DNA from: an uncultured Pseudomonadales bacterium
GTDB lineage: Bacteria; Patescibacteriota; Microgenomatia; UBA1400; Chazhemtobacteraceae
Length of the DNA: 64,000 nucleotides
Assembly (NCBI GenBank): GCA_964422035.1
Contig: CAYQZQ010000001.1
Location: 441,013 to 505,012 of the forward strand
Direction: 5' to 3'
A model generated the notes under the pieces. The model was not told the DNA's origin. It worked only from the letters and a program-made list of their open reading frames with translations, and searched no databases. Made by a program: the position numbers and the translations under genes. Shown here one piece after another: positions 31,785-44,079 of the stretch (its first letter is position 1; every line of letters starts with the position of its first letter).

Positions 31785-33683
31785 TTGTTTGGCTTTTTTG
31801 AAATTTGTTCTGTTGGAACTTTATTAACTCAATATATAAGCTATAATTCAACTAAGGAAATAACTATGGCGGAAAAGTCCCCTCCCCAATCATCACATGC
31901 GAAAGATATAGAGCACTTAGACAATCTCGTTCAAAGAGCCAGTACAAAAAAAGAGAATGAACCCAAACGCAAAAAGAGTGTTGTAGTTGTGGGTTCTACC
32001 TACTTTCCCAACTTTGGAGATAAAAATGAAAATATCCCTGACAATATAAGGGGCAATCTAGTATTAGAAAGTTTAAAGAAACTAAACAATGAAGGTATCG
32101 ACGTGTGTGTAGTCGATGGTAGTAGCTCCGAAGCTTTTGTGGAAAAAGTAAAAGAAATAAATCCAAAACGTTTTAGCGAAGGAGGTGTGAGTAGAGAACC
32201 TGCTGATATACATGATTTTATCAACACTCTAGAGGTTTCTGAAGAGGCAAGTAAAAAGGGGGAAGACATCCCTGGAATCATATGGTTTGTTGAACAACAG
32301 GAAGAGGGCTATAGCCAAGCAAGGGTTGAGGTAATAAAAAGCGTTACGGATGTTGTAACAGGCTCTGTAGATCACGAAGCCATTTTTCAAATGGAGTTAG
32401 AGAAAACTCCTTTGGTCGGCGAGATAGAAAAAACAATCAAACCGATTGTAGAGGGACGGGCAGATATAGTTATCCCAGATCGTGGCATAAGGGTTAAGGA
32501 TTTAGGAGATGATCGGGACGATTTCCGTAATTATCCAAGATTTCAAGCCGTTTCTGAGAGAAAAGCAAATCTCCTCATACACCAGATGCTTGTAGAAGCA
32601 GGACTAAGGGGGGCTGAAGACTCTGTGCTAGATCTATTCGGGGGGACTAGGGCAATCAAAGATAAGCCAGACCTTAGAAGATTATTTGGCGAAACCTTTA
32701 AAATACCAGAAGATAGTTCCTTTTGGGGAAAAATTAAACCAGAAGCTTATTCTAACGCCGTATACTTTCCTGTCTATATTGCTCTTGCACTGGGCCGAAA
32801 GGTAGATTCTGTACCAATTGATTTCTCCTATCCAAAGAGTCAAACAGCACTAGAGGCACAGGATGAAAGTTATAAAGAGAAAAGACAAGAGCAATTCAAT
32901 GATATCGTAGGAGGCTCAAAATTATTAATAGACTTCTTGGGTAAAAAATTGAAAAAAGTGAAACTCGCAGAAAAAGTTCTTGATACAAAAAGGGTCCTAA
33001 ATTATCTTAGAAAAAACTCTGTGATTGAACTTGAGGAATTGCAATGGGAAGAAAAAAACCAATTTAGTGAAGAATTACATTACGACAAAGCAGATTTACT
33101 TTCCATACTTGAAAAGATAGGGCAAGGCGAAAAGATTGTTGAGCAACTTGACGATGCACTTGCTTCCTATCTTTCTAATTTCGACGCTGGTCACTCTTTT
33201 TTGAATTGGGATGAGTTTAAACAAGTACGAAAAAGGATGAATCTTTTGAAAAAGGGAGTTAATCTCTTTGGAAAAGAAAAAGAGGCTGAAAAAATTTATG
33301 AAAAATATAGAGATCAAATACTCAACAATCTATATAATACAACGCTTATTTTTTATTTATTGAGAAACTCTGGTGCATCTAGAAATTTAGACATTGCCTC
33401 TTTCTTTGCTGAATTTGTCGAGGTTTCAAAAACGGACTACTCCATAGCGGTGCTTTTTGGCACTTCAGACGACGCAAAGCTAGACGAGCTAAATAGTTTG
33501 ACAAAAAAATTTAACTTAACTGCAGGGGAAAAAAGACAAATAATAGTAGGGCTATCAAGACAGGTAATAATAAAGAAGCCGGAAACAGATAAGAAAGAAC
33601 TTATTGATGATTTAGGAGAGATTTTTGAAATTCCTCCTGAGGAGTTATCAGTAATTAGTAAAAGAGTGTTAGAAATAAGCTAA
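31785..33683 (+). CDS. Large hypothetical protein (possible N-terminal GT-A-like nucleotide-sugar transferase fold; likely start at MAEKSPP, 31866)
   Basis: 632-aa ORF. VVVVGSTYFPNF...LESLKKLNNEGIDVCVVDGSSSE resembles the GT-A N-terminal pattern. The rest is unrecognised. Flanked by fragments A and B. Confidence 0.45.
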   Translation: MFGFFEICSVGTLLTQYISYNSTKEITMAEKSPPQSSHAKDIEHLDNLVQRASTKKENEPKRKKSVVVVGSTYFPNFGDKNENIPDNIRGNLVLESLKKLNNEGIDVCVVDGSSSEAFVEKVKEINPKRFSEGGVSREPADIHDFINTLEVSEEASKKGEDIPGIIWFVEQQEEGYSQARVEVIKSVTDVVTGSVDHEAIFQMELEKTPLVGEIEKTIKPIVEGRADIVIPDRGIRVKDLGDDRDDFRNYPRFQAVSERKANLLIHQMLVEAGLRGAEDSVLDLFGGTRAIKDKPDLRRLFGETFKIPEDSSFWGKIKPEAYSNAVYFPVYIALALGRKVDSVPIDFSYPKSQTALEAQDESYKEKRQEQFNDIVGGSKLLIDFLGKKLKKVKLAEKVLDTKRVLNYLRKNSVIELEELQWEEKNQFSEELHYDKADLLSILEKIGQGEKIVEQLDDALASYLSNFDAGHSFLNWDEFKQVRKRMNLLKKGVNLFGKEKEAEKIYEKYRDQILNNLYNTTLIFYLLRNSGASRNLDIASFFAEFVEVSKTDYSIAVLFGTSDDAKLDELNSLTKKFNLTAGEKRQIIVGLSRQVIIKKPETDKKELIDDLGEIFEIPPEELSVISKRVLEIS

Positions 33684-34626: not shown

Positions 34627-35763
34627 CTAGGAGGCTTCCCAAGTGGAGTTTTCTATCAAATCTAAAGTATTTTTTGCATTTTGTTTAGCTTTTTTAGCAC
34701 CAGTTTTTAATATACCCGATACATAGTCTGGATCTTGAGTGATTTTTTGGCGCTTTTCTTGAAATTCATGAAGGAAATTTTTAGTTATCTTGGTTAATAT
34801 TTGTTTAAAATCACCCATAACTTTCTCACCCGACATATGTTTCTGAACTATTTGATCTATCATGTTTTTATCTTCTTCTGTTCTGGCAAGCTCTTGAGCC
34901 AAGAGAATATGACTTTTAAGTGTTTCGTTCATCTTCCCAGCAAAAGCTGTCTGTGCGCGTTTAATCTTATCTGCTGCTTCTTCAGGACTATCGGTCAGGA
35001 ATATTGCCCCTTTCGGGTTGGTTTTGCTCATCTTACCGTCACCTCTCAGTGACTGTAGCCTTAACGGAGCCTCAACTTCTAAAACTTTAGGTGTGGGCAA
35101 AATTTCTCCATATTGATTGTTGAATCTTCTAATCAACTTCCTGGTTACTTCCATGTGAGCTAGTTGGTCTTCACCTACAGGCACCTTGTGAGCTCTTTGA
35201 AGAATAATGTCTGATGCCATCATTACAGGATAAAGTAAAAGTAGGGCATTTGCAGTTTCAGGTCTTGAGTTTTTTTTGAGCTTATCTTTTAAAGTCGGAA
35301 CTCTTAGTAATTCAGAGGCACTAATGTGCCTAGATAGCCACGTCATTAAGGTAGTAACTTCTGGAGTAATCTCAGATTGAACAAATATATCAGTCCTTTC
35401 GGGATCAAGCCCCAGGGCAAGATAATCCGCTACTACTTCATTTGTGAATTTGCGAGCCTGATGAGGCTCATGATCTGTTAAGGCGTGTAGGTCCGCAACA
35501 AAAACCATGATCTCTTTCTCCTCATCCTGGAGTTCTACTATGGGCTTTACCGCACCTAAATAATTAGCAACGGTTAAATCGCCCGTTGGGCGAATACCCG
35601 TGAATATATCAACCATATAATCTTTTCTTTCCTTTTTTTCAGGACTATTTAGCATATCTTGATTCTTTAGTGTTTCAGACTTGTTTATAGTATCTTTTTC
35701 AGATTCTCTCATAGTTTGAGTAATTAAATCAAATCTGAGTACAAATGTCAATTTAGATTTCAT
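34627..35763 (-). CDS. trpS: Tryptophanyl-tRNA synthetase (full-length, with a ~60-aa N-terminal extension)
   Basis: TGIRPTGDLTVANYLGA (HIGH region), VFVADLHALT, and the KMSKS-type motif GDGKMSKTNPKG. Followed by the anticodon-binding helical domain. Confidence 0.85.
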   Translation of the reverse strand: MKSKLTFVLRFDLITQTMRESEKDTINKSETLKNQDMLNSPEKKERKDYMVDIFTGIRPTGDLTVANYLGAVKPIVELQDEEKEIMVFVADLHALTDHEPHQARKFTNEVVADYLALGLDPERTDIFVQSEITPEVTTLMTWLSRHISASELLRVPTLKDKLKKNSRPETANALLLLYPVMMASDIILQRAHKVPVGEDQLAHMEVTRKLIRRFNNQYGEILPTPKVLEVEAPLRLQSLRGDGKMSKTNPKGAIFLTDSPEEAADKIKRAQTAFAGKMNETLKSHILLAQELARTEEDKNMIDQIVQKHMSGEKVMGDFKQILTKITKNFLHEFQEKRQKITQDPDYVSGILKTGAKKAKQNAKNTLDLIENSTWEAS

Positions 35764-35803
35764 TATTAGAGGATAATCTGCATCAATGATATAATTTAAA
35801 AAA

Positions 35804-36856
35804 ATGGATAGACAAAAACAAGAAAAGATATCATCTGCAATTAAGCAAGTAATCGCTGGGAAAGATTTGGATAAAAAGAATTTGAAGGAAGTTTTTAAGA
35901 TTATATTGGAGCATGGGCTAGGAGATGCAAACGATGTTTCTTTTGGGGCTTTATTTGCAGCCCTACAGACTAAAGGTCCGACAGATAATGAGTTACTTGG
36001 CTTAATTGAGATTGTATTGAATTATGACAGAGAAAAAATTCCATACTCAGGGAATTCAAGCAATCTTTGTGGGGTAGTAGGAAGTGGTAAGGATGATATA
36101 AAAACTTTCAACATCAGCACTTGTGCGGCTTTTGTGGCCTCAGCAGCTGGAGTAAAAATGGTCAAAAATGGATCTCGCAGTGAATCTAGTATCGCTGGAA
36201 CCACGGACGTGCTTGAAGAACTAGGAGTAAAAATAAATCTTGAACCGGAAGAAGTTATTGAGGCTTTAGAAAAATATGGTATTACTTTTTGTGATGCAGG
36301 ACCTTATTTTCCCAGGATGAGTAGAGAATACGTTGGAAAATTTCTGTTTCCTCATCCACTGAGTTACACCTTATCCATAGCAAGTGGTTTAAGTTTTGAG
36401 AGGGTATTGTTTGGTGTTTCCTTTCCCGAAACTGAAAGGGTTGCTCATATTTTAAGAGAGCTTGGGTATCATGATTTCATGGTAGTTTCGGGTGAAGATG
36501 AAAAAGGTAGACGCTTCGATGAAATTTCAAATATCGGACCAACAAAGATCAGTGAGTATAAAAAGAATAAATTAAAAACTTATACTGCCAGTCCAGAAGA
36601 TTTTGGCATTAAATCCTCTGAGCATAAATACATTAAGGAAGGGGAGTCCGTAAAAGAGAACGCTAAAAAAATGCTAGATATTCTTAAAAATCAGACTGTC
36701 GCTCCAACGAGAGATGTTGTCTTGATAAACGCAGGAGCCCTCATTTATATAGCTGATAAAGCAGAAAGTATAAGAGAGGGCGTAAAAATGGCAAAAGAGG
36801 CCATAGAAAGCGGTGGGGCATTTGAGAAGTTCAAAAACTTGAGAGACTACAAATGA
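35804..36856 (+). CDS. TrpD-like protein (anthranilate phosphoribosyltransferase / glycosyl transferase family 3)
   Basis: CGVVGSGKDDIKTFNISTCAAFVASAAGVKMVKNGSRSESSIAGTTDVLEELGVK aligns with TrpD ..GTGGDG.NT.NISTAAAFV.AA.G..V.KHGNRS.SS..GSAD.LEA.G. The PRPP loop is altered (GSGKD instead of GTGGD). Confidence 0.75.
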   Translation: MDRQKQEKISSAIKQVIAGKDLDKKNLKEVFKIILEHGLGDANDVSFGALFAALQTKGPTDNELLGLIEIVLNYDREKIPYSGNSSNLCGVVGSGKDDIKTFNISTCAAFVASAAGVKMVKNGSRSESSIAGTTDVLEELGVKINLEPEEVIEALEKYGITFCDAGPYFPRMSREYVGKFLFPHPLSYTLSIASGLSFERVLFGVSFPETERVAHILRELGYHDFMVVSGEDEKGRRFDEISNIGPTKISEYKKNKLKTYTASPEDFGIKSSEHKYIKEGESVKENAKKMLDILKNQTVAPTRDVVLINAGALIYIADKAESIREGVKMAKEAIESGGAFEKFKNLRDYK

Positions 36857-38169
36857 ATAAAACAGTGAATCAAGGCTCCAAGTATACCGATTCTAAAATT
36901 GATTATATGGAGAGGGGTGAGTTGGAAAAATTACAATTAAAAAGGATAAAAGAAACGCTAAGGTGGGCATCTGAAAATTCTAGATTTTATCGTGAGTTGT
37001 ATAAAGAAATTTCAATAAAGACAATAAATAGTTTCTCAGATTTTAGAAAGCTACCTTTTACAACCAAAAAAGACTTGGTGAATAACTATCCTTTCGGAAA
37101 TCTGTGTGTGCCTCAAAAAGAAGTGGTTGAAGTTCATTTTTCTTCAGGTACAACAAATAGACCAGTTCCCACTTACATGACTCAAGAGGATTTATTATTG
37201 AGTAATGAGGCATTAGCGAGAACTTGGTATATGCAGGGGGTATGTTCGAATACCGTTTTTGGTATGCTTGCTTCTTATGGTCTATTTTCAGCTGGATTGC
37301 TGAATCATTATGCCATACAAAAGTTAGGGGCGTTTGTAATTCCTATTAGCTCATCTTCTACCGATAAGACAATAGGTTTGCTAAAAGACTATAGCATTAA
37401 TGCCACAGCAGCTGTAACTAGTTATTACTTATACCTTGTTAATAGGATAAGAGAATTAGGTTACTCTAAGGACAATTTTAATTTAGAGATTGCAATAGCA
37501 GGCGGAGAACCTTTTACTGAAAATCAACGAGACTATATTGAAAAGAATTTGGGGACTGAGTTGCTTGATCAATATGGTATTTCTGAGATTAATACCGGGT
37601 TGGCGGGAGAGTGTAAGCTCAAAAATGGATTACATATTTTAGCAGATTATGCATATCCAGAGATTGTTGATACTGAAACTGGGGAAGTCTGCGAGGAGGG
37701 GAAGTCTGGAGAATTAGTATTGACGACTCTTGCTAAAAGAGCTTCACCTCTTATTCGCTATAAGACAGGTGATATGGCGAGCATTACTTACAAGAAGTGT
37801 GGATGTGGAAGAACCTTACCTCGTATCTCAAAAATCATGAGAAGAAAAGGTGGTACATTGTTTTATAAAGGTAGGAAAATAGAGCGAGAATTTGTAATTA
37901 GTTTTATGGAAGATCAAGATGATTATCTGGATCCATACATTTGGAAGCTAATTTTGTCTGGCAATATGGGTAATCAGAAAATGTTTTTTAGGGTTTTGGT
38001 AAAAGGAGATAATAACCAAAAGGATTGCCTGAGAAAGCTTGAGATGGAATTTAAAAAGAAGGCAGGGATAAATGTTAAAGCTAAATTATTTTCTGAATCT
38101 GAATTAAAAAGCTTGGAAGAAGATAAGTTAAAACATTTTGTTGACAGACGCAAGGAGGTTGGTAAATAA
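36853..38169 (+). CDS. Adenylate-forming ligase of the PaaK / F390-synthetase / CapK family
   Basis: HFSSGTTNRPVPTYMTQEDL (the AMP-binding SSGTTG.P motif in PaaK-like spacing). 438 aa with the ANL two-domain layout. Confidence 0.75.
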   Translation: MNKTVNQGSKYTDSKIDYMERGELEKLQLKRIKETLRWASENSRFYRELYKEISIKTINSFSDFRKLPFTTKKDLVNNYPFGNLCVPQKEVVEVHFSSGTTNRPVPTYMTQEDLLLSNEALARTWYMQGVCSNTVFGMLASYGLFSAGLLNHYAIQKLGAFVIPISSSSTDKTIGLLKDYSINATAAVTSYYLYLVNRIRELGYSKDNFNLEIAIAGGEPFTENQRDYIEKNLGTELLDQYGISEINTGLAGECKLKNGLHILADYAYPEIVDTETGEVCEEGKSGELVLTTLAKRASPLIRYKTGDMASITYKKCGCGRTLPRISKIMRRKGGTLFYKGRKIEREFVISFMEDQDDYLDPYIWKLILSGNMGNQKMFFRVLVKGDNNQKDCLRKLEMEFKKKAGINVKAKLFSESELKSLEEDKLKHFVDRRKEVGK

Positions 38170-38170
38170 A

Positions 38171-39511
38171 ATGAGAAAGATATACACAATATTAGACGGA
38201 GAGAAATTGGCCGGGGATAGAGAGAAAGCAGTGATAAGCCCTTACTCTCTTAATCAGGTGGCCAATATTAATTATGCAAAATTAGAGAAAATTGAAAGAA
38301 AAAGAGCAAAAAAACATGATATGGCTTATCTGCGAAGAATACTACAAGATTTTGCAGATTATCTATCATCAGAATCCATTAAGTTAGCCAGAGTTGCCGC
38401 AGAAGAAACAGGGAGTCCAATAAAATATCACAAAAAAGACATTGAAGCTGTAATTGAATATATTGAGCATTTATGTGATGGTTTTGTATTTCAAGAAAGC
38501 CCATATGTTCATGAGTCTAAGGGAAAAGTCTTAATTCTGTTGTCGGCTAACGAGCCAGTTGTTTTAGGCACTATTCCATTATTAACGGCATTGATGACTG
38601 GGAACACTGTTTATCTTAAGCCATCTTCAAGGTCTCCATCTTATGCTTATTTAATCGTCAATAAGTTGCATAAATTAGGACTAGAAAGTGATCTTCTGCA
38701 TTTATTGCTTCCAGAAAAACAGGATATAGAGACCATCATTCAGAGACAAACTGTTGATTGTGTATTATCTTTTGGACATCACAAAACAAATAGAATATTA
38801 GGAGCTATTGCAGCTAAAGCAGGGGTCGAATTTATTCCAGAAAATGACGGAAACTGTTGGGCTTATGTTGATGAAGATTTTCCTTTTTGTAATAAGAAAT
38901 TGATATCAACAATAAAAAGGTCCGTGGTTAAGCACAATGGCCAGATGTGTGATTCATTACGCGGTTTATTAATTCACAATGAAGTTTTCGATGATATTTC
39001 CAAGGGAATAATAGAAAATATCAAAGATGTTAATATGGGTAATCCGTTAGATGTTTCGAGTGATGTAGGAGCTTTGCTAGTTGGTACAGCATCTAAGATC
39101 CCTGATCTTATAGAAGAAAGTAGTGGAAAGACCTATAAATACCATGTGGAAAACAATGTGGTGTCTCCTACTGTTGTTTTAGGTCCTCGTGCTGAATCGA
39201 CGTTAGTTGAAGATAGTGTTTTTGCGCCCGTTTTATGGATAAAGTCTGTTTCTGGACCACAAGAGGTAATTGAGTTATATAAGAGACATAATCACCATGG
39301 GTTATGCTTTTCAATATTCTCTAATGATGAATCCAGCATAGAGAAGTTAAGTAGAAACATCTCTGTGGGAAGGATAAATGTGAATTGCTCCCCGGTAGAA
39401 ATAGATGTTATGAGTCCGTGGGGAGGACTTAAAACGAGTGGTTATGGTGGGCCTACAAGTTGGTTTGACAGATTTACCAATAGAAAGGTAATAAACCATG
39501 GACAATTTTGA
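38171..39511 (+). CDS. Aldehyde dehydrogenase-superfamily protein (ProA / acylating ALDH-like); the ORF track gives 38138
   Basis: SFGHHKTNRILGAIAAKAGVEFIPENDGNCWAYVDED aligns with the ALDH FTGS..VG..I..AA...LELGGK motif. NGQMCDSLRGLLIH matches the catalytic-Cys region (compare ProA CNA.E.LLVH). An AAGGAGG SD precedes the ATG at 38171. Confidence 0.6.
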   Translation: MRKIYTILDGEKLAGDREKAVISPYSLNQVANINYAKLEKIERKRAKKHDMAYLRRILQDFADYLSSESIKLARVAAEETGSPIKYHKKDIEAVIEYIEHLCDGFVFQESPYVHESKGKVLILLSANEPVVLGTIPLLTALMTGNTVYLKPSSRSPSYAYLIVNKLHKLGLESDLLHLLLPEKQDIETIIQRQTVDCVLSFGHHKTNRILGAIAAKAGVEFIPENDGNCWAYVDEDFPFCNKKLISTIKRSVVKHNGQMCDSLRGLLIHNEVFDDISKGIIENIKDVNMGNPLDVSSDVGALLVGTASKIPDLIEESSGKTYKYHVENNVVSPTVVLGPRAESTLVEDSVFAPVLWIKSVSGPQEVIELYKRHNHHGLCFSIFSNDESSIEKLSRNISVGRINVNCSPVEIDVMSPWGGLKTSGYGGPTSWFDRFTNRKVINHGQF

Positions 39512-40154
39512 AATCGTAATAATAACTGGAGTTTCGGCAGATGGTAAGGTTACTCTTGGAGAAGGAGTAAGTAGCAAGAAGTTTGCGGCTTTGTTGTCTC
39601 CTGAGATGTCAGAACCGCTTCTAGAATTGAGACGGTGGGCGGATGTAATTTTAGTTGGGAGAAAAACAGTGAAGATAGACAACCCCTCTTTAAAATCCAA
39701 TGAAAATTCAGGACTAATTAGGGCAGTTATAGATAGAGAGATGCGCTTATCTTTAGACAAGAATATATTTGATGGGTCTGCGAGGACTCTAATTATTACA
39801 ACAAGCACAAACAAAGAGAAGGAGAGGCAGCTTAGACAAAAAGGTGTAGAAATTATAAGGATTTCACAAGAAGATTTTTTACCAGAATTAAAAAATGAGT
39901 TTGAGGAGCGTGGACTTTACAAGATAATGGTTGAAGGTGGAGGTAATTTGAATTATTTTATGTTAAAAAATCATTTTGTTGATAAAATCATCATCGCAAC
40001 TTTTCCTTTTATTGTAGGAGGAAAAGATACCCCAACTATAGTAGACGGAGAAAGCATAGCAACTATGAAAGAGGCAATAAAATTGAAATTAATTAGATCG
40101 TACTTGGTTGATAAAAATATGGTAGTAAATGAATTTGGGGTAGAAAATGACTAA
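39498..40154 (+). CDS. RibD C-terminal-type (dihydrofolate-reductase-like) reductase domain protein
   Basis: IVIITGVSADGKVTL...ADVILVGRKTV...KIMVEGGGNL matches the RibD_C / ArfC-like reductase layout. Confidence 0.65.
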   Translation: MDNFEIVIITGVSADGKVTLGEGVSSKKFAALLSPEMSEPLLELRRWADVILVGRKTVKIDNPSLKSNENSGLIRAVIDREMRLSLDKNIFDGSARTLIITTSTNKEKERQLRQKGVEIIRISQEDFLPELKNEFEERGLYKIMVEGGGNLNYFMLKNHFVDKIIIATFPFIVGGKDTPTIVDGESIATMKEAIKLKLIRSYLVDKNMVVNEFGVEND

Positions 40155-41040
40155 ACTTAAGAAAATTAAGCTGAAAAAATATTCTTCTTTAGATGATAAA
40201 TATTTTGCAAAAAGGCAATTATTATCAAAATCCTTAAATTTATCAAAAAAAGAACTTGGAGAGGTTTTTTCTGGTAAGGAAAAATACAAAATTGTTACAG
40301 GTTTTGGTCTAACAGGTTATTTTCATCTAGGAAGTAAATTGCTTCTAAACGAGGTAAAATTTTTTGCTGATCTTGGATTAGAAGCACAAATATTGTTGAG
40401 TGGATATGATACTAGAGTAAGAGGAACCACTAATTCCAAAAGCCCAGTACATATACAAAAAAGTATGTTGCAAATTATAGACAAACTAGACAAAAATGAA
40501 AAGATTAAAGTAGAGGAAAGATCCCCTGGAGTAGATTCCGAGATTTTCCAATCGATTAATGATTTAGTGAACAAAGATGATTTTGTTGAGTTTTATGGAC
40601 AAGAAATGGGTAAGAGTGGTAGAGATGCTTTGGTAGATATGGCAGCATCAATTATTGAAATTGATAATCAAAAGAAGATAGTTATATTGCTAGGGGTTGA
40701 TGAACTGGGTGAAGCTCTTTTCATCAGTCATGTTTATAAAAAGCTTGAGATGTCACCACCAGGTTTTTTATTCAATCATGTTGTACTCGGATATGACTCC
40801 AACAAAATGGGCAAGTCGCGTCCGGAATTTAGTTTAGTTATTTCATCGTCTGCAGAGGAAGAGATTAAGAAGGTTGAAAAATATCTTCGAAAAGATGGAG
40901 ATCACCGGAAATGTCCTTGTTATTATATAAATTTGTTCTCAAAGTATGGAGATCCCGAAATATCTACATGTAAGCGCGTGCATAAAAAATTACCTACGAT
41001 TATTAAAAAAGAATGTAAGGAGTTCGTGTCAAGCGACTAA
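40147..41040 (+). CDS. Truncated class-I aminoacyl-tRNA-synthetase-like paralog (TrpRS/TyrRS catalytic domain only, with a Cys-rich C-terminal tail)
   Basis: HIGH-like VTGFGLTGYFHLGS, KMSKS-like NKMGKSRPEF. No anticodon-binding domain. C-terminus HRKCPCYY..STCKRVH. 297 aa. Confidence 0.6.
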   Translation: MTKLKKIKLKKYSSLDDKYFAKRQLLSKSLNLSKKELGEVFSGKEKYKIVTGFGLTGYFHLGSKLLLNEVKFFADLGLEAQILLSGYDTRVRGTTNSKSPVHIQKSMLQIIDKLDKNEKIKVEERSPGVDSEIFQSINDLVNKDDFVEFYGQEMGKSGRDALVDMAASIIEIDNQKKIVILLGVDELGEALFISHVYKKLEMSPPGFLFNHVVLGYDSNKMGKSRPEFSLVISSSAEEEIKKVEKYLRKDGDHRKCPCYYINLFSKYGDPEISTCKRVHKKLPTIIKKECKEFVSSD

Positions 41041-41043
41041 AAT

Positions 41044-41748
41044 ATGAAGACATTAAAGCAAGCCTATAACGATTTTTTTGATCAGAAGTTTAACGTAGAT
41101 GTGGAGCCAGTTTATGACAATAAGGTTCAAAGTATATTAAAGTATGTTGATCATAATAAGCAGGTGCTAGACGTAGGGTGTTTGACAGGTTACTTGGGGT
41201 ATTTTTGTTTAAAAAAGAAAAACAGTACTAAGGTGGTGGGAATTGATTTTGTCGAAAACGCTTTAAAGCATGCTCGTAAGCTAGGTATTGATGCACGCTA
41301 TGGTAACGTCGAAAATGGCAGTTTGCCAATTCAGGATTCTGAGCGCTTTGACGTAATAATAGTTTCTGAGATAATTGAGCATTTGGTTGATCCTCTTGTT
41401 GTGTTGGAAAAACTCAAAAAGGTGCTCAAGAAAAACGGAAAGATAATAATTTCTACACCAAATATGGCTTATTTTCAATATAGATTTGAACTGCTAATGG
41501 GAAAGTTGCCAGATTTTTGTGAGTTTCGTGGTAAATATCCAGAAAGACCCTACAATTTTCAACACAAAACTTTATTTACTAAAAAAGTACTGGTCGAGAC
41601 ATTGGAAATGGCAGAATTAAAGCTTAAGAAACTTGATAGTCATAGCACATATAAGAGTAAGTTGGAGAAGTTTTTTGATCCTTTTGAAAAACTATTTCCA
41701 GGTGTGTTTGTTAAGAATATGATTGCAGTTGTTACTAAAAAGGATTAA
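41044..41748 (+). CDS. Class I SAM-dependent methyltransferase
   Basis: Motif I VLDVGCLTGYLG, motif post-I VGIDF, and DVIIVSEIIEHL. Confidence 0.8.
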   Translation: MKTLKQAYNDFFDQKFNVDVEPVYDNKVQSILKYVDHNKQVLDVGCLTGYLGYFCLKKKNSTKVVGIDFVENALKHARKLGIDARYGNVENGSLPIQDSERFDVIIVSEIIEHLVDPLVVLEKLKKVLKKNGKIIISTPNMAYFQYRFELLMGKLPDFCEFRGKYPERPYNFQHKTLFTKKVLVETLEMAELKLKKLDSHSTYKSKLEKFFDPFEKLFPGVFVKNMIAVVTKKD

Positions 41749-41754
41749 TGTTCA

Positions 41755-42633
41755 ATGAAGGCAGATAACAAGAAAATTCGAGAGTATGTACACAGAATAA
41801 AAGGTGATAAATCGAAGGTAAAAAGACTTCCAACAGAAAGAGAAAGTTATGTTTACTCGATTGAAGATCGTTTGATCTATAAAATTATGCCTGAGTCTCT
41901 TAACAGAAGTACTTATCAGGAGATTAACAGACTGCTTGAAGACAGCGGGGTGCCTTTTCCTAATTTAATTGATGAATGGAAAGAGGGAGGATTTCATCAC
42001 TTAATCCAGGAGAAGAAGTCTGGGAAAAAGTTGTCGGCAATGAATAACAAAGAAAAGGTAAAATATTATCCCGAAGTCGCAAGCATATTATATAAAATAC
42101 ATATGATTAAAATTAATTCAGTAGGGCCTATTGAAGAAGCTGGTGGTAAATTTTCAAATTGGGCAAGTTATATACGAAATTTTAAAAAATTTTCAGAGAA
42201 CCATGGGGATGTGGTTCCAGAATATGTTACAAAAGATGATTACGAAATAATATTAAGGGCTGTAGAAGATTTGGCACGGAGAAAAAATAATCCATGTTTG
42301 GTTCACGGTGATTTTATGGAAAAAAATATTTTAGTCGAGGGAGGGAAAGTAACTGCCATACTGGATTGGGATGTTGCAATAGCTGGTGATCGGATCATGG
42401 ATTTTGCTACTTTTCGTCTTTGGGATGGAATATTTATTAACAACTCACTAATTGAAGAATATTACCCTGAGAAAAAACTATTTGAACAAGACAAATTTGA
42501 GTTCTATTGTAATCGTTATCAGCTGTATTCAGGATTTATTACACTTGACTTTTTAATTAGTAACGAAGAGCAAGACTTGTTTAATTTACCAGAAAAAATT
42601 AACAGAATCTGCTCTAAAATACAAAAAAGGTGA
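41755..42633 (+). CDS. Aminoglycoside-phosphotransferase (APH)-family small-molecule kinase
   Basis: Catalytic loop LVHGDFMEKNILV and the ILDWDVAIAGDRIMDFA motif. Confidence 0.7.
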   Translation: MKADNKKIREYVHRIKGDKSKVKRLPTERESYVYSIEDRLIYKIMPESLNRSTYQEINRLLEDSGVPFPNLIDEWKEGGFHHLIQEKKSGKKLSAMNNKEKVKYYPEVASILYKIHMIKINSVGPIEEAGGKFSNWASYIRNFKKFSENHGDVVPEYVTKDDYEIILRAVEDLARRKNNPCLVHGDFMEKNILVEGGKVTAILDWDVAIAGDRIMDFATFRLWDGIFINNSLIEEYYPEKKLFEQDKFEFYCNRYQLYSGFITLDFLISNEEQDLFNLPEKINRICSKIQKR

Positions 42634-43871
42634 AGATACTATTCGTTCCTTTAAGCGAAACAGCGCTTGCTCATATTGTCAGGTGCTTAGTCATTGCGCT
42701 CGAAGCTAAAAAAGAGGGCCATGAGGTGCTTTTTACAAGCATAAGGGGGAGAACTGACTTGATTGATGGATTTGATATTCCTGTGTATAAAAATGGGATT
42801 AAACTTCTAAAAAATACAGAGGGTGAGATCGACAAAATATCACAAATCAGGAGATACGAGATTGAAGCAGCTAGATATTTTCATCCGGATGTGATTATAA
42901 ATGATCCAGTAATAGCCGGTTCATTTGCTGCAAGAAAGTTAAACTTACCATTGGTCTTAGTAACAAACTCGACACTTTTGCCGAATTATTCTGGATATTA
43001 TGGATATTCCAAGGTAGGAAAGGATTTGACTAGTAATTTCGGATACTTTGGTAATTATTACCCACGCAAGGTTATGTTTCCAAAAATTTTGAAAGTTTTT
43101 GACAGGCTTGATATCAAAAATATACCAAGACATTATAATAAATTATTTGATAGAAATTTAAAGATAATACCAAGCATCCCCCTACTTGATCCTCTAGATA
43201 ATCCAGACAGCCTAACACATTATGTAGGGCCCCTTTTGCTTGAAAACCACTGGAAACCTGATAGTGAGTTGGTTAATTTTGTAAATAAGGTAAGGGGTCC
43301 TCTGGTTGCAGTAAATTTTGGAGGGTCAGTATTTTTAGAAAATACTTATCATAGAACAATTGAAGTATTACTTTCTTGTGGCTATAAAATTGTAGTCGGA
43401 ATTGGCCCGAATTTTGATATTGAAAAATTCCAGAATAAATATGGAAAGGATAATAATTTGCTTATTAGACAATATACCCCAAATGAATATTTGGCAGAAA
43501 GAGCAAAATTTTTCATAATTTCCGGTGGACACGGAACACTAACTCAGACTTTATTGAATGGTTGTCCTGTTTTATGCATACCTCATAACGTGGACCAGAG
43601 CACATTTGCTCAGAGGGTTGAAGAATTAGGTTGTGGAATTAATGTGATGAGGATTGATAAACCGATGAAGGATCTTGATTATTGGAGGAAAAAAGCGAGC
43701 AATCTATCTAAAAATAAGTTATTCGATGCGATTAAGAAACTAGAGGTAAACGTTGAGAATTTTAGAACTAATTGTCGTCAAGTCGGTGATCAACTGTCTA
43801 AACATTCGAATCCTGCGAAAAAAATTTTGGATCTCACCGAAGAGTTTGTCGACCAAAAGCAACGCTTGTAA
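42630..43871 (+). CDS. GT1-family UDP-glycosyltransferase (MGT / UGT-like)
   Basis: C-terminal donor-binding signature FIISGGHGTLTQTLLNGCPVLCIPHNVDQSTFAQRVEELGCGI. Confidence 0.75.
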   Translation: MKILFVPLSETALAHIVRCLVIALEAKKEGHEVLFTSIRGRTDLIDGFDIPVYKNGIKLLKNTEGEIDKISQIRRYEIEAARYFHPDVIINDPVIAGSFAARKLNLPLVLVTNSTLLPNYSGYYGYSKVGKDLTSNFGYFGNYYPRKVMFPKILKVFDRLDIKNIPRHYNKLFDRNLKIIPSIPLLDPLDNPDSLTHYVGPLLLENHWKPDSELVNFVNKVRGPLVAVNFGGSVFLENTYHRTIEVLLSCGYKIVVGIGPNFDIEKFQNKYGKDNNLLIRQYTPNEYLAERAKFFIISGGHGTLTQTLLNGCPVLCIPHNVDQSTFAQRVEELGCGINVMRIDKPMKDLDYWRKKASNLSKNKLFDAIKKLEVNVENFRTNCRQVGDQLSKHSNPAKKILDLTEEFVDQKQRL

Positions 43872-44005: not shown

Positions 44006-44079
44006 TGGTTGCCAGGCTAGGATTCGAACCTAGATTGACGGTGTCAGAGACCGCAGTCCTACCATTAGACGACCTGGCA
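44006..44079 (-). tRNA. tRNA-Gln (anticodon CTG)
   Basis: Reverse complement is TGCCAGGTCGTCTAATGGTAGGACTGCGGTCTCTGACACCGTCAATCTAGGTTCGAATCCTAGCCTGGCAACCA. Acceptor TGCCAGG/CCTGGCA. Anticodon stem GCGGT/ACCGT with loop CTCTGAC. T-arm CTAGG-TTCGAAT-CCTAG. CCA is encoded. Confidence 0.85.

Follow-up and report, generated by a model that had tools for sequence, protein, structure and literature searches.

The stretch of DNA considered here, referred to as the window, spans 64,000 nucleotides (C1:441013-505012) of an 812,908-bp bacterial genome, G000, which is distributed over 3 contigs, is 96% complete and has a GC content of about 40-41%. Its central element is an operon of eight genes on the forward strand, coding for a TrpD-like phosphoribosyltransferase, a PaaK-like ligase, an aldehyde dehydrogenase, a RibD_C-family reductase, a small protein of the aminoacyl-tRNA synthetase (aaRS) type, class Ic, a methyltransferase, a kinase and a glycosyltransferase. 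The eight genes overlap or abut one another, which implies that they are carried on one transcript. On the opposite strand, the gene for a full-length tryptophanyl-tRNA synthetase (TrpRS), hereafter TrpRS2 (34627..35763, minus strand), diverges from the trpD-like gene, and the 40 bp between the two (35764..35803) would host the shared promoter region, if any, as judged from the coordinates of the open reading frames (ORFs).

The class Ic protein, encoded at 40147..41040 on the forward strand, is 297 aa long and matches the Pfam family tRNA-synt_1b with 31.1 bits (cut-off 21.1). In agreement with the original prediction, which was made from the letters of the DNA alone, it carries both signature motifs of this class of enzymes. 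Specifically, the HIGH-like motif corresponds to F59-H60-L61-G62, within 'TGFGLTGYFHLGSK', and can be written as G57-x-x-H60-L-G62-S63 (40315..40335, plus strand), with a serine (S63 of the tetrapeptide HLGS) in the place of the second histidine, while KMGKS is found at residues 220-224 (40804..40818, plus strand). A third element, GIDE (residues 183-186; 40693..40704, plus strand), occupies the position of the GxDQ motif and bears a glutamate instead of the glutamine. When 14 members of the family are aligned, G52, G57, H60, G62, G183, D185, E186, G215, M221 and K223 turn out to be invariant. The invariance of His60 and Lys223, in particular, argues for retained catalytic chemistry. A degraded pseudo-enzyme had been envisaged in case the neighbouring TrpRS gene were the only trpS of the genome and the ATP-binding residues were lost; neither is the case, as a second TrpRS exists and the residues of the ATP motifs are invariant in the 14 members.

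The AlphaFold2 (AF2) model of the protein is confident (pLDDT 84.6, pTM 0.86), and the known structures that it most resembles are TrpRS from archaea and eukaryotes, the top Foldseek match being the TrpRS of A. pernix (E 7e-14). With VIA, the model superposes on the same A. pernix enzyme with a Z of 25.0 over 293 residues, reaching residue 358 of 367, and its residues 12-297 align to residues 1-306 of M. jannaschii TyrRS, anticodon domain included, with a Z of about 21.5. Sequence profiles give a concordant picture: A. pernix TrpRS is retrieved with E 3e-31 in a profile search of PDB sequences, and the best NCBIfam match is the archaeal TrpRS model PRK12285 (PRK12285.1-2). In the structural comparison that had been proposed as a check for the small protein, archaeal TrpRS and TyrRS match over the full length and cyclodipeptide synthases (CDPSs) are absent from the top matches. 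In a maximum-likelihood tree, the class Ic family forms a 100/100 clade inside the archaeal/eukaryal-type TrpRS-like radiation, of which it represents a distinct branch. The supposition that the small protein is a paralog of the neighbouring TrpRS must consequently be abandoned, since no BLAST similarity between the two is found and the protein belongs to the archaeal/eukaryal-type clade instead.

The C-terminal part of the protein had been described as devoid of a helical anticodon-binding domain. This description was overstated, as the last 73 residues of the model contain three helices (residues 236-244, 259-264 and 275-291) that align with the C-terminal domain of M. jannaschii TyrRS, and nothing is missing but the longer domain with which bacterial TrpRS and TyrRS end. 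In other words, by length and architecture the modelled protein is a minimal archaeal-type class Ic enzyme. The same compact domain includes the cysteine-rich end that had been noticed about 75 aa past KMGKS, and which is readily recognized: Cys 256, 258, 275 and 290 lie within the 73 residues that follow KMGKS, in a C-P-C ... C ... C arrangement accompanied by H279 (40912..41016, plus strand), and are kept in P0002 and in the family. The idea that the Cys tail is a novelty was rejected, because a homologous motif is present at the equivalent place in canonical archaeal-type TrpRS, namely P0028 ('DKCP...CRSG...CGEC'), P0027 and P0019. The cluster is inherited from archaeal TrpRS. Within the TrpRS-A group, coordination of a metal cluster by cysteines has been suggested for some members (TrpRS-A2; PMC5370408). 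Fold, HIGH and KMSKS motifs, C-terminal domain and Cys motif are all shared with the archaeal/eukaryal-type TrpRS/TyrRS superfamily.

A different situation is found in the substrate pocket. In Bs TrpRS, an aspartate of the specificity helix reads the indole nitrogen of tryptophan (bioRxiv 10.64898/2026.03.23.713518). Profile alignment to 3a04 and A1 would place Ser168 of the class Ic protein (40648..40650, plus strand) at this position, so that neither the specificity aspartate nor the glutamine of GxDQ, replaced by the invariant E186, is kept from the canonical archaeal/eukaryal-type pocket. Because E186 and Ser168 depart from the TrpRS/TyrRS pocket, the substrate of the class Ic enzyme is probably altered. 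The family itself is small and scattered. A HMMER search of 1.8 billion representative sequences retrieves about 12 proteins at 26-41% identity; the closest homolog is a metagenome protein at 52% identity, which is also the only near match. No homolog is detected in named GTDB genomes by tblastn at E<=1e-3, and 30 genomes of the same order yield a single weak partial match.

TrpRS2 (378 aa; TIGR00233, 257.5 bits) is a bacterial-type enzyme of a clade typical of the CPR (Candidate Phyla Radiation). It was correctly anticipated as a complete TrpRS lying upstream on the opposite strand, with TVAN, KMSKT and an N-terminal extension. TVAN is at 64 and KMSKT at 244, the extension measures about 50 aa, and the start codon lies 4.4 kb from the class Ic ORF. 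The extension is Lys-rich, is conserved in the ortholog of locus L005 and is present in other CPR sequences of the TrpRS2 clade. A search for a second, housekeeping trpS, which had been suggested, finds it on another contig (C2:29007-30017), coding for a 336-aa TrpRS with KMSKS that is 34% identical to TrpRS2. All 30 of the 30 same-order relatives, whose genomes measure 0.7-1.3 Mb, possess a TrpRS of this C2 type, and no TrpRS2 ortholog is found among them. Accordingly, TrpRS2 has to be regarded as an extra copy. Its nearest homologs are in Patescibacteria, with 58-64% identity to CPR TrpRSs, and the clade is represented in many CPR metagenome-assembled genomes (MAGs). Together with the small genomes of the same-order relatives, these homologs suggest that the organism is itself a CPR bacterium. 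A CPR-type TrpRS2 (64% identity) also appears on contig JALUTL010000460 of a Heimdallarchaeota MAG (L018), where it is probably misbinned CPR DNA. As for the remaining translation components of relevance, the genome has a bacterial-type TyrRS (C2:52405-53616) and a sole tRNA-Trp, of the bacterial type with G73.

The remaining genes of the operon, all on the plus strand, delineate a metabolic context. The first one (35804..36856) codes for a 350-aa TrpD-like anthranilate phosphoribosyltransferase, which exceeds the cut-off of TIGR01245 with 243 bits and is the sole GT3 (PF00591) match in the genome. TrpE, TrpC and TrpA (Chorismate_bind, IGPS and Trp_syntA) were not found in a search of the genome, which makes the organism a Trp auxotroph; since the trp pathway is missing, the trpD-like gene serves the operon and not Trp biosynthesis. 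There follow a 438-aa coenzyme A (CoA) ligase of the ANL type, similar to PaaK and F390 synthetase (36853..38169; PF00501, with paak_haloarch and PA_CoA_ligase as best NCBIfam matches, below cut-off), a 457-aa aldehyde dehydrogenase with similarity to the acyl-CoA reductase LuxC (38138..39511; PF00171, 182 bits; PF05893, 27.7 bits) and a 218-aa RibD_C-family reductase (39498..40154; PF01872, 115 bits; TIGR01508 best). Downstream of the class Ic gene are encoded an S-adenosylmethionine-dependent methyltransferase of 234 aa (41044..41748; Methyltransf_31 among other matches), which begins 3 nt past the class Ic stop, an APH-family small-molecule kinase of 292 aa (41755..42633; PF01636 and the NCBIfam model APH_3p) and a macrolide-type glycosyltransferase of 413 aa (42630..43871; GT1, EryCIII-like; TIGR01426 MGT). 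An ORF of 534 aa in the genome search corresponds to the class Ic gene read through into the methyltransferase. A programmed fusion of the two was discarded as an artefact, given the TAA at 41038-41040 and the methyltransferase's own ATG in the same frame. With regard to regulatory signals, scans returned promoter and terminator counts at chance level, the intergenic region 35764..35803 included, and an Rfam scan of the 30-48 kb interval revealed one tRNA only, with no riboswitch or T-box found.

The core genes of the operon, together with the adjoining TrpRS gene, constitute a module that is met again in further genomes and in contigs from metagenomes, at 52-68% identity to the window genes. 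The loci L005 and L006 (JGI) carry TrpRS2 followed by trpD, paaK, aldh, ribD and the class Ic gene; L012 has a TrpRS2-like gene with the same five partners; L014 and L015 are rearranged (TrpRS2-like, ribD, class Ic gene, GT2, aldh, paaK, trpD), and L028, from a Saccharibacteria MAG in GTDB, contains a TrpRS2-like gene, ribD and the class Ic gene. In L007 the order of the window is complete, from trpD through GT1, with orthologs of the methyltransferase (55% identity), the APH kinase (30%) and the glycosyltransferase (44%), and here a single protein of 526 aa (P0003) unites RibD_C with the class Ic domain. This fusion suggests that the product of the reductase is the substrate of the class Ic enzyme. 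The TrpRS that adjoins the module on module-bearing contigs is of the TrpRS2 type (45-55% identity), and wherever a module-bearing contig extends far enough for the neighbour to be seen (L005, L012, L014, L028), such a copy stands beside the module. Two other module-bearing genomes, G032 and G035, hold like G000 a separate housekeeping TrpRS besides the module-linked copy. In the genome G034 the TrpRS2 type is the only TrpRS. No tRNA genes were found in the module loci. The metagenome contig of L014 and L015 also contains, within a few kb of the module, an archaeal-type TyrRS-like class Ic gene (369 aa).

Based on these observations, our preferred reading, which is tentative and to which we assign somewhat less than an even chance, is that the class Ic protein acts as an aminoacyl or acyl transferase in a dedicated small-molecule pathway, with TrpRS2 as the dedicated, or immunity, TrpRS of the producer. 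The original prediction of a natural-product role with a nearby TrpRS copy is borne out as far as the genetic setting is concerned, namely a conserved operon of natural-product-like composition, the RibD_C fusion and an extra TrpRS that travels with the operon. This last association matches the duplicated-target pattern of antibiotic clusters directed against aaRSs (PMC12945691). The substrate put forward in that prediction, Trp or an aryl amino acid, receives no support, two of the residues that read Trp in TrpRS being changed, and resistance of the nearby TrpRS is at most a possibility.

The chemistry that we infer would start with the TrpD-like enzyme, which would join phosphoribosyl pyrophosphate (PRPP) and an aromatic amine, probably anthranilate, to give an N-phosphoribosyl-arylamine as a nucleotide-like scaffold. 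The RibD_C-type reductase would then convert the N-ribosyl into an N-ribityl group, a reduction from ribosyl to ribityl that RibD performs in riboflavin synthesis. The class Ic enzyme would form an acyl-adenylate with ATP, employing His60 of the HIGH motif and Lys223 of KMGKS or, alternatively, would accept the aminoacyl group of a Trp-tRNA that TrpRS2 has charged; in either case the acyl group would be passed to a hydroxyl or amine of the scaffold, and not to A76 of a tRNA. An aryl-acyl or aldehyde partner might be supplied by the PaaK-like CoA ligase and the aldehyde dehydrogenase/acyl-CoA reductase, and the methyltransferase, the kinase and the glycosyltransferase might tailor the product in some lineages. 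TrpRS2 would be the immunity copy and possibly also the supplier of Trp-tRNA. If TrpRS2 is indeed a dedicated immunity copy, the product is expected to mimic Trp-AMP or the 3′ end of an aminoacyl-tRNA and to act on TrpRS or translation. A more far-reaching version, according to which CPR bacteria carry a transferable antibiotic-like module whose aminoacyl-ribityl- or aminoacyl-ribosyl-arylamine is directed at the TrpRS or translation of competitors, with TrpRS2 protecting the producer, appears rather unlikely.

A literature search found no direct precedent for TrpRS paralogs clustered with phosphoribosyltransferase and RibD genes, and the closest parallels come from other synthetases. In the ascamycin pathway of Streptomyces sp. 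80H647, the extra, resistant alanyl-tRNA synthetase AcmD provides immunity and Ala-tRNA, and the truncated AlaRS-like AcmF aminoacylates a nucleoside; in the SB-203208 pathway the extra isoleucyl-tRNA synthetase SbzA both confers immunity and transfers isoleucine to altemicidin (PMC12945691). The window likewise combines an aaRS-derived enzyme inside a conserved operon with an extra copy of a full-length aaRS beside it. The differences are nonetheless substantial. AcmF belongs to class II, has lost the ATP-binding residues and is tRNA-dependent, whereas the window enzyme is of class Ic and keeps HIGH and KMSKS; moreover, the window operon includes phosphoribosyltransferase, RibD_C, CoA-ligase, aldehyde dehydrogenase and tailoring genes and resides in a bacterium with a reduced genome. 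As regards SbzA, the analogy would lie in a class I aaRS homolog tied to a small-molecule pathway together with a dedicated aaRS copy, but SbzA is a full IleRS of class Ia doing both jobs, which in the window may be split between TrpRS2 and the divergent class Ic enzyme. By analogy, then, TrpRS2 and the class Ic enzyme could represent a variant of the known pattern of an aaRS-like transferase plus an immunity aaRS, in an unexpected host lineage.

Producers of indolmycin and chuangxinmycin encode an extra TrpRS with the cluster for self-resistance, besides the housekeeping one. A second TrpRS encoded with the module, next to a housekeeping enzyme elsewhere, is what is seen here as well; however, the indolmycin and chuangxinmycin clusters are without a TrpRS-like transferase and without phosphoribosyltransferase and RibD_C genes, unlike the window operon, and TrpRS2 differs from their TrpRS in showing no resistance mark at the known contact residues.

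Several observations weigh against the small-molecule reading. Trp may not be the substrate of the class Ic enzyme, considering the changes in the pocket residues E186 and S168, and the compact C-terminal domain of the model leaves tRNA binding possible. TrpRS2 keeps the residues that contact Trp and indolmycin (equivalents of Bs H43, M129, D132 and Q147, as listed in bioRxiv 10.64898/2026.03.23.713518); since all of these are kept, any resistance of TrpRS2 would have to arise elsewhere. Furthermore, TrpRSs of the TrpRS2 clade occur in CPR genomes with no module nearby, and for this reason the linkage of TrpRS2 with the module could in part reflect the place where the module originated and not selection for immunity. 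Finally, biosynthetic clusters are rare in the streamlined genomes of Patescibacteria (PMC12455944), which makes a natural-product pathway less likely a priori.

The first of the competing explanations draws on some of these same facts. The module could encode a cofactor-like or catabolic pathway around an N-ribityl-arylamine metabolite, in which the class Ic protein is an ATP-dependent amidating or acylating ligase and TrpRS2 is a hitchhiker with no immunity function, brought along by transfer from a CPR donor to which this TrpRS clade is native. The pairing of a TrpD-like enzyme with RibD_C does recall the ribityl-amine chemistry of riboflavin, F420 and methanopterin precursors, module-free TrpRSs of the TrpRS2 clade occur in several CPR genomes, G034 has that type only, and the low GC of the module genes points in the same direction. 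Against a mere hitchhiker stands the presence of a TrpRS2-type copy beside the module on all long-enough contigs, even where a housekeeping TrpRS exists, and the methyltransferase, the APH kinase and the macrolide-type glycosyltransferase resemble secondary metabolism. On balance, this explanation is doubtful.

A second proposal, which we consider distinctly unlikely, is that the class Ic protein is an auxiliary archaeal-type synthetase, similar to TrpRS-A, that loads Trp, or some noncanonical aromatic amino acid, onto a tRNA, its metabolic neighbours being unrelated. CPR bacteria and DPANN archaea are known to possess TrpRS-A together with tRNA-Trp(A73) and ORF1 (Mukai et al. 2017; PMC5370408), and the window enzyme is, like TrpRS-A, an archaeal-type TrpRS homolog in a presumed CPR bacterium beside a canonical bacterial TrpRS. 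In addition, its closest structures are archaeal TrpRS and TyrRS over the full length, compact C-terminal domain included, and the HIGH and KMSKS motifs are retained. Yet there is no A73 tRNA-Trp in this genome, whose sole tRNA-Trp is the G73 one, the module loci are without tRNA genes, the substrate-recognition residues are altered and the partner genes are metabolic, with a RibD_C fusion in P0003 and a gene order with metabolic enzymes that is conserved in five lineages. It should be specified that the comparison with TrpRS-A is one of partner genes and of tRNA-Trp type.

A CDPS-like enzyme of the AlbC family, producing cyclodipeptides from aminoacyl-tRNAs with Trp-tRNA provided by TrpRS2, is very improbable. 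CDPSs are themselves class Ic-like Rossmann enzymes of natural-product biosynthesis that use aminoacyl-tRNAs and have no anticodon domain, and an extra TrpRS could feed Trp-tRNA to such an enzyme. These synthases, on the other hand, have a catalytic Ser, are devoid of KMSKS and do not use ATP, whereas KMGKS is invariant in the class Ic family and the alignment with M. jannaschii TyrRS extends over the full length, C-terminal domain included. The CDPS identity was rejected, as KMGKS with Lys223 is kept and no CDPS was found by structure comparison (top PDB matches), by the profile run against PDB sequences or with Pfam down to E<=10. Equally remote is a non-catalytic partner, that is, a pseudo-enzyme or regulatory subunit in a heterodimer with TrpRS2: class Ic enzymes form dimers, the two genes lie close together and such heterodimers were proposed by Mukai et al. 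for ORF1 and TrpRS-A (PMC5370408), but His60 and Lys223 do not vary within the family, which many different lineages share, and the domain is fused to RibD_C in P0003.

Should the small-molecule reading be correct, the class Ic enzyme would define, among the biosynthetic transferases that derive from aaRSs, a new branch of class Ic, evolved from an archaeal-type TrpRS, alongside AcmF in class II and SbzA in class Ia. It would also bring a small-molecule pathway with built-in immunity by target duplication into Patescibacteria-like genomes, which are thought to be without secondary metabolism (PMC12455944), and its product could represent a new natural class of inhibitors of TrpRS or translation.

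Some features of the surrounding DNA concern the origin of the module. Its genes are AT-richer than the genome, with a GC fraction of 0.32-0.38 against a mean of 0.41, a base composition that is consistent with transfer. Directly downstream of the last module gene, the glycosyltransferase gene ending at 43871, a tRNA-Gln(ctg) gene is located at 44006-44079 on the minus strand. Genes for tRNAs are common integration sites, and the position of this one beside the module end agrees with a module that was acquired by transfer. On the other side, upstream of ham1, an ORF of 632 aa (31785-33683, plus strand) gives no Pfam match. The run search listed no RNA run for this genome, and the sole matching DNA sequencing run is a 2018 microbial-mat metagenome, its likely source.

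A second, distinct CPR module (L042, L043 and L021) joins a TrpRS of the TrpRS2 clade with a GT3 protein of 457 aa, a class Ic paralog of about 375 aa without the HIGH histidine, a methyltransferase, a 325-aa membrane protein and an NAD epimerase, a combination that counts in favour of the small-molecule reading. MAGs with the labels of three phyla, Parcubacteria, Saccharibacteria and Thermotogota, carry this module in near-identical form, and this near-identity suggests either a very recent transfer or misbinning.

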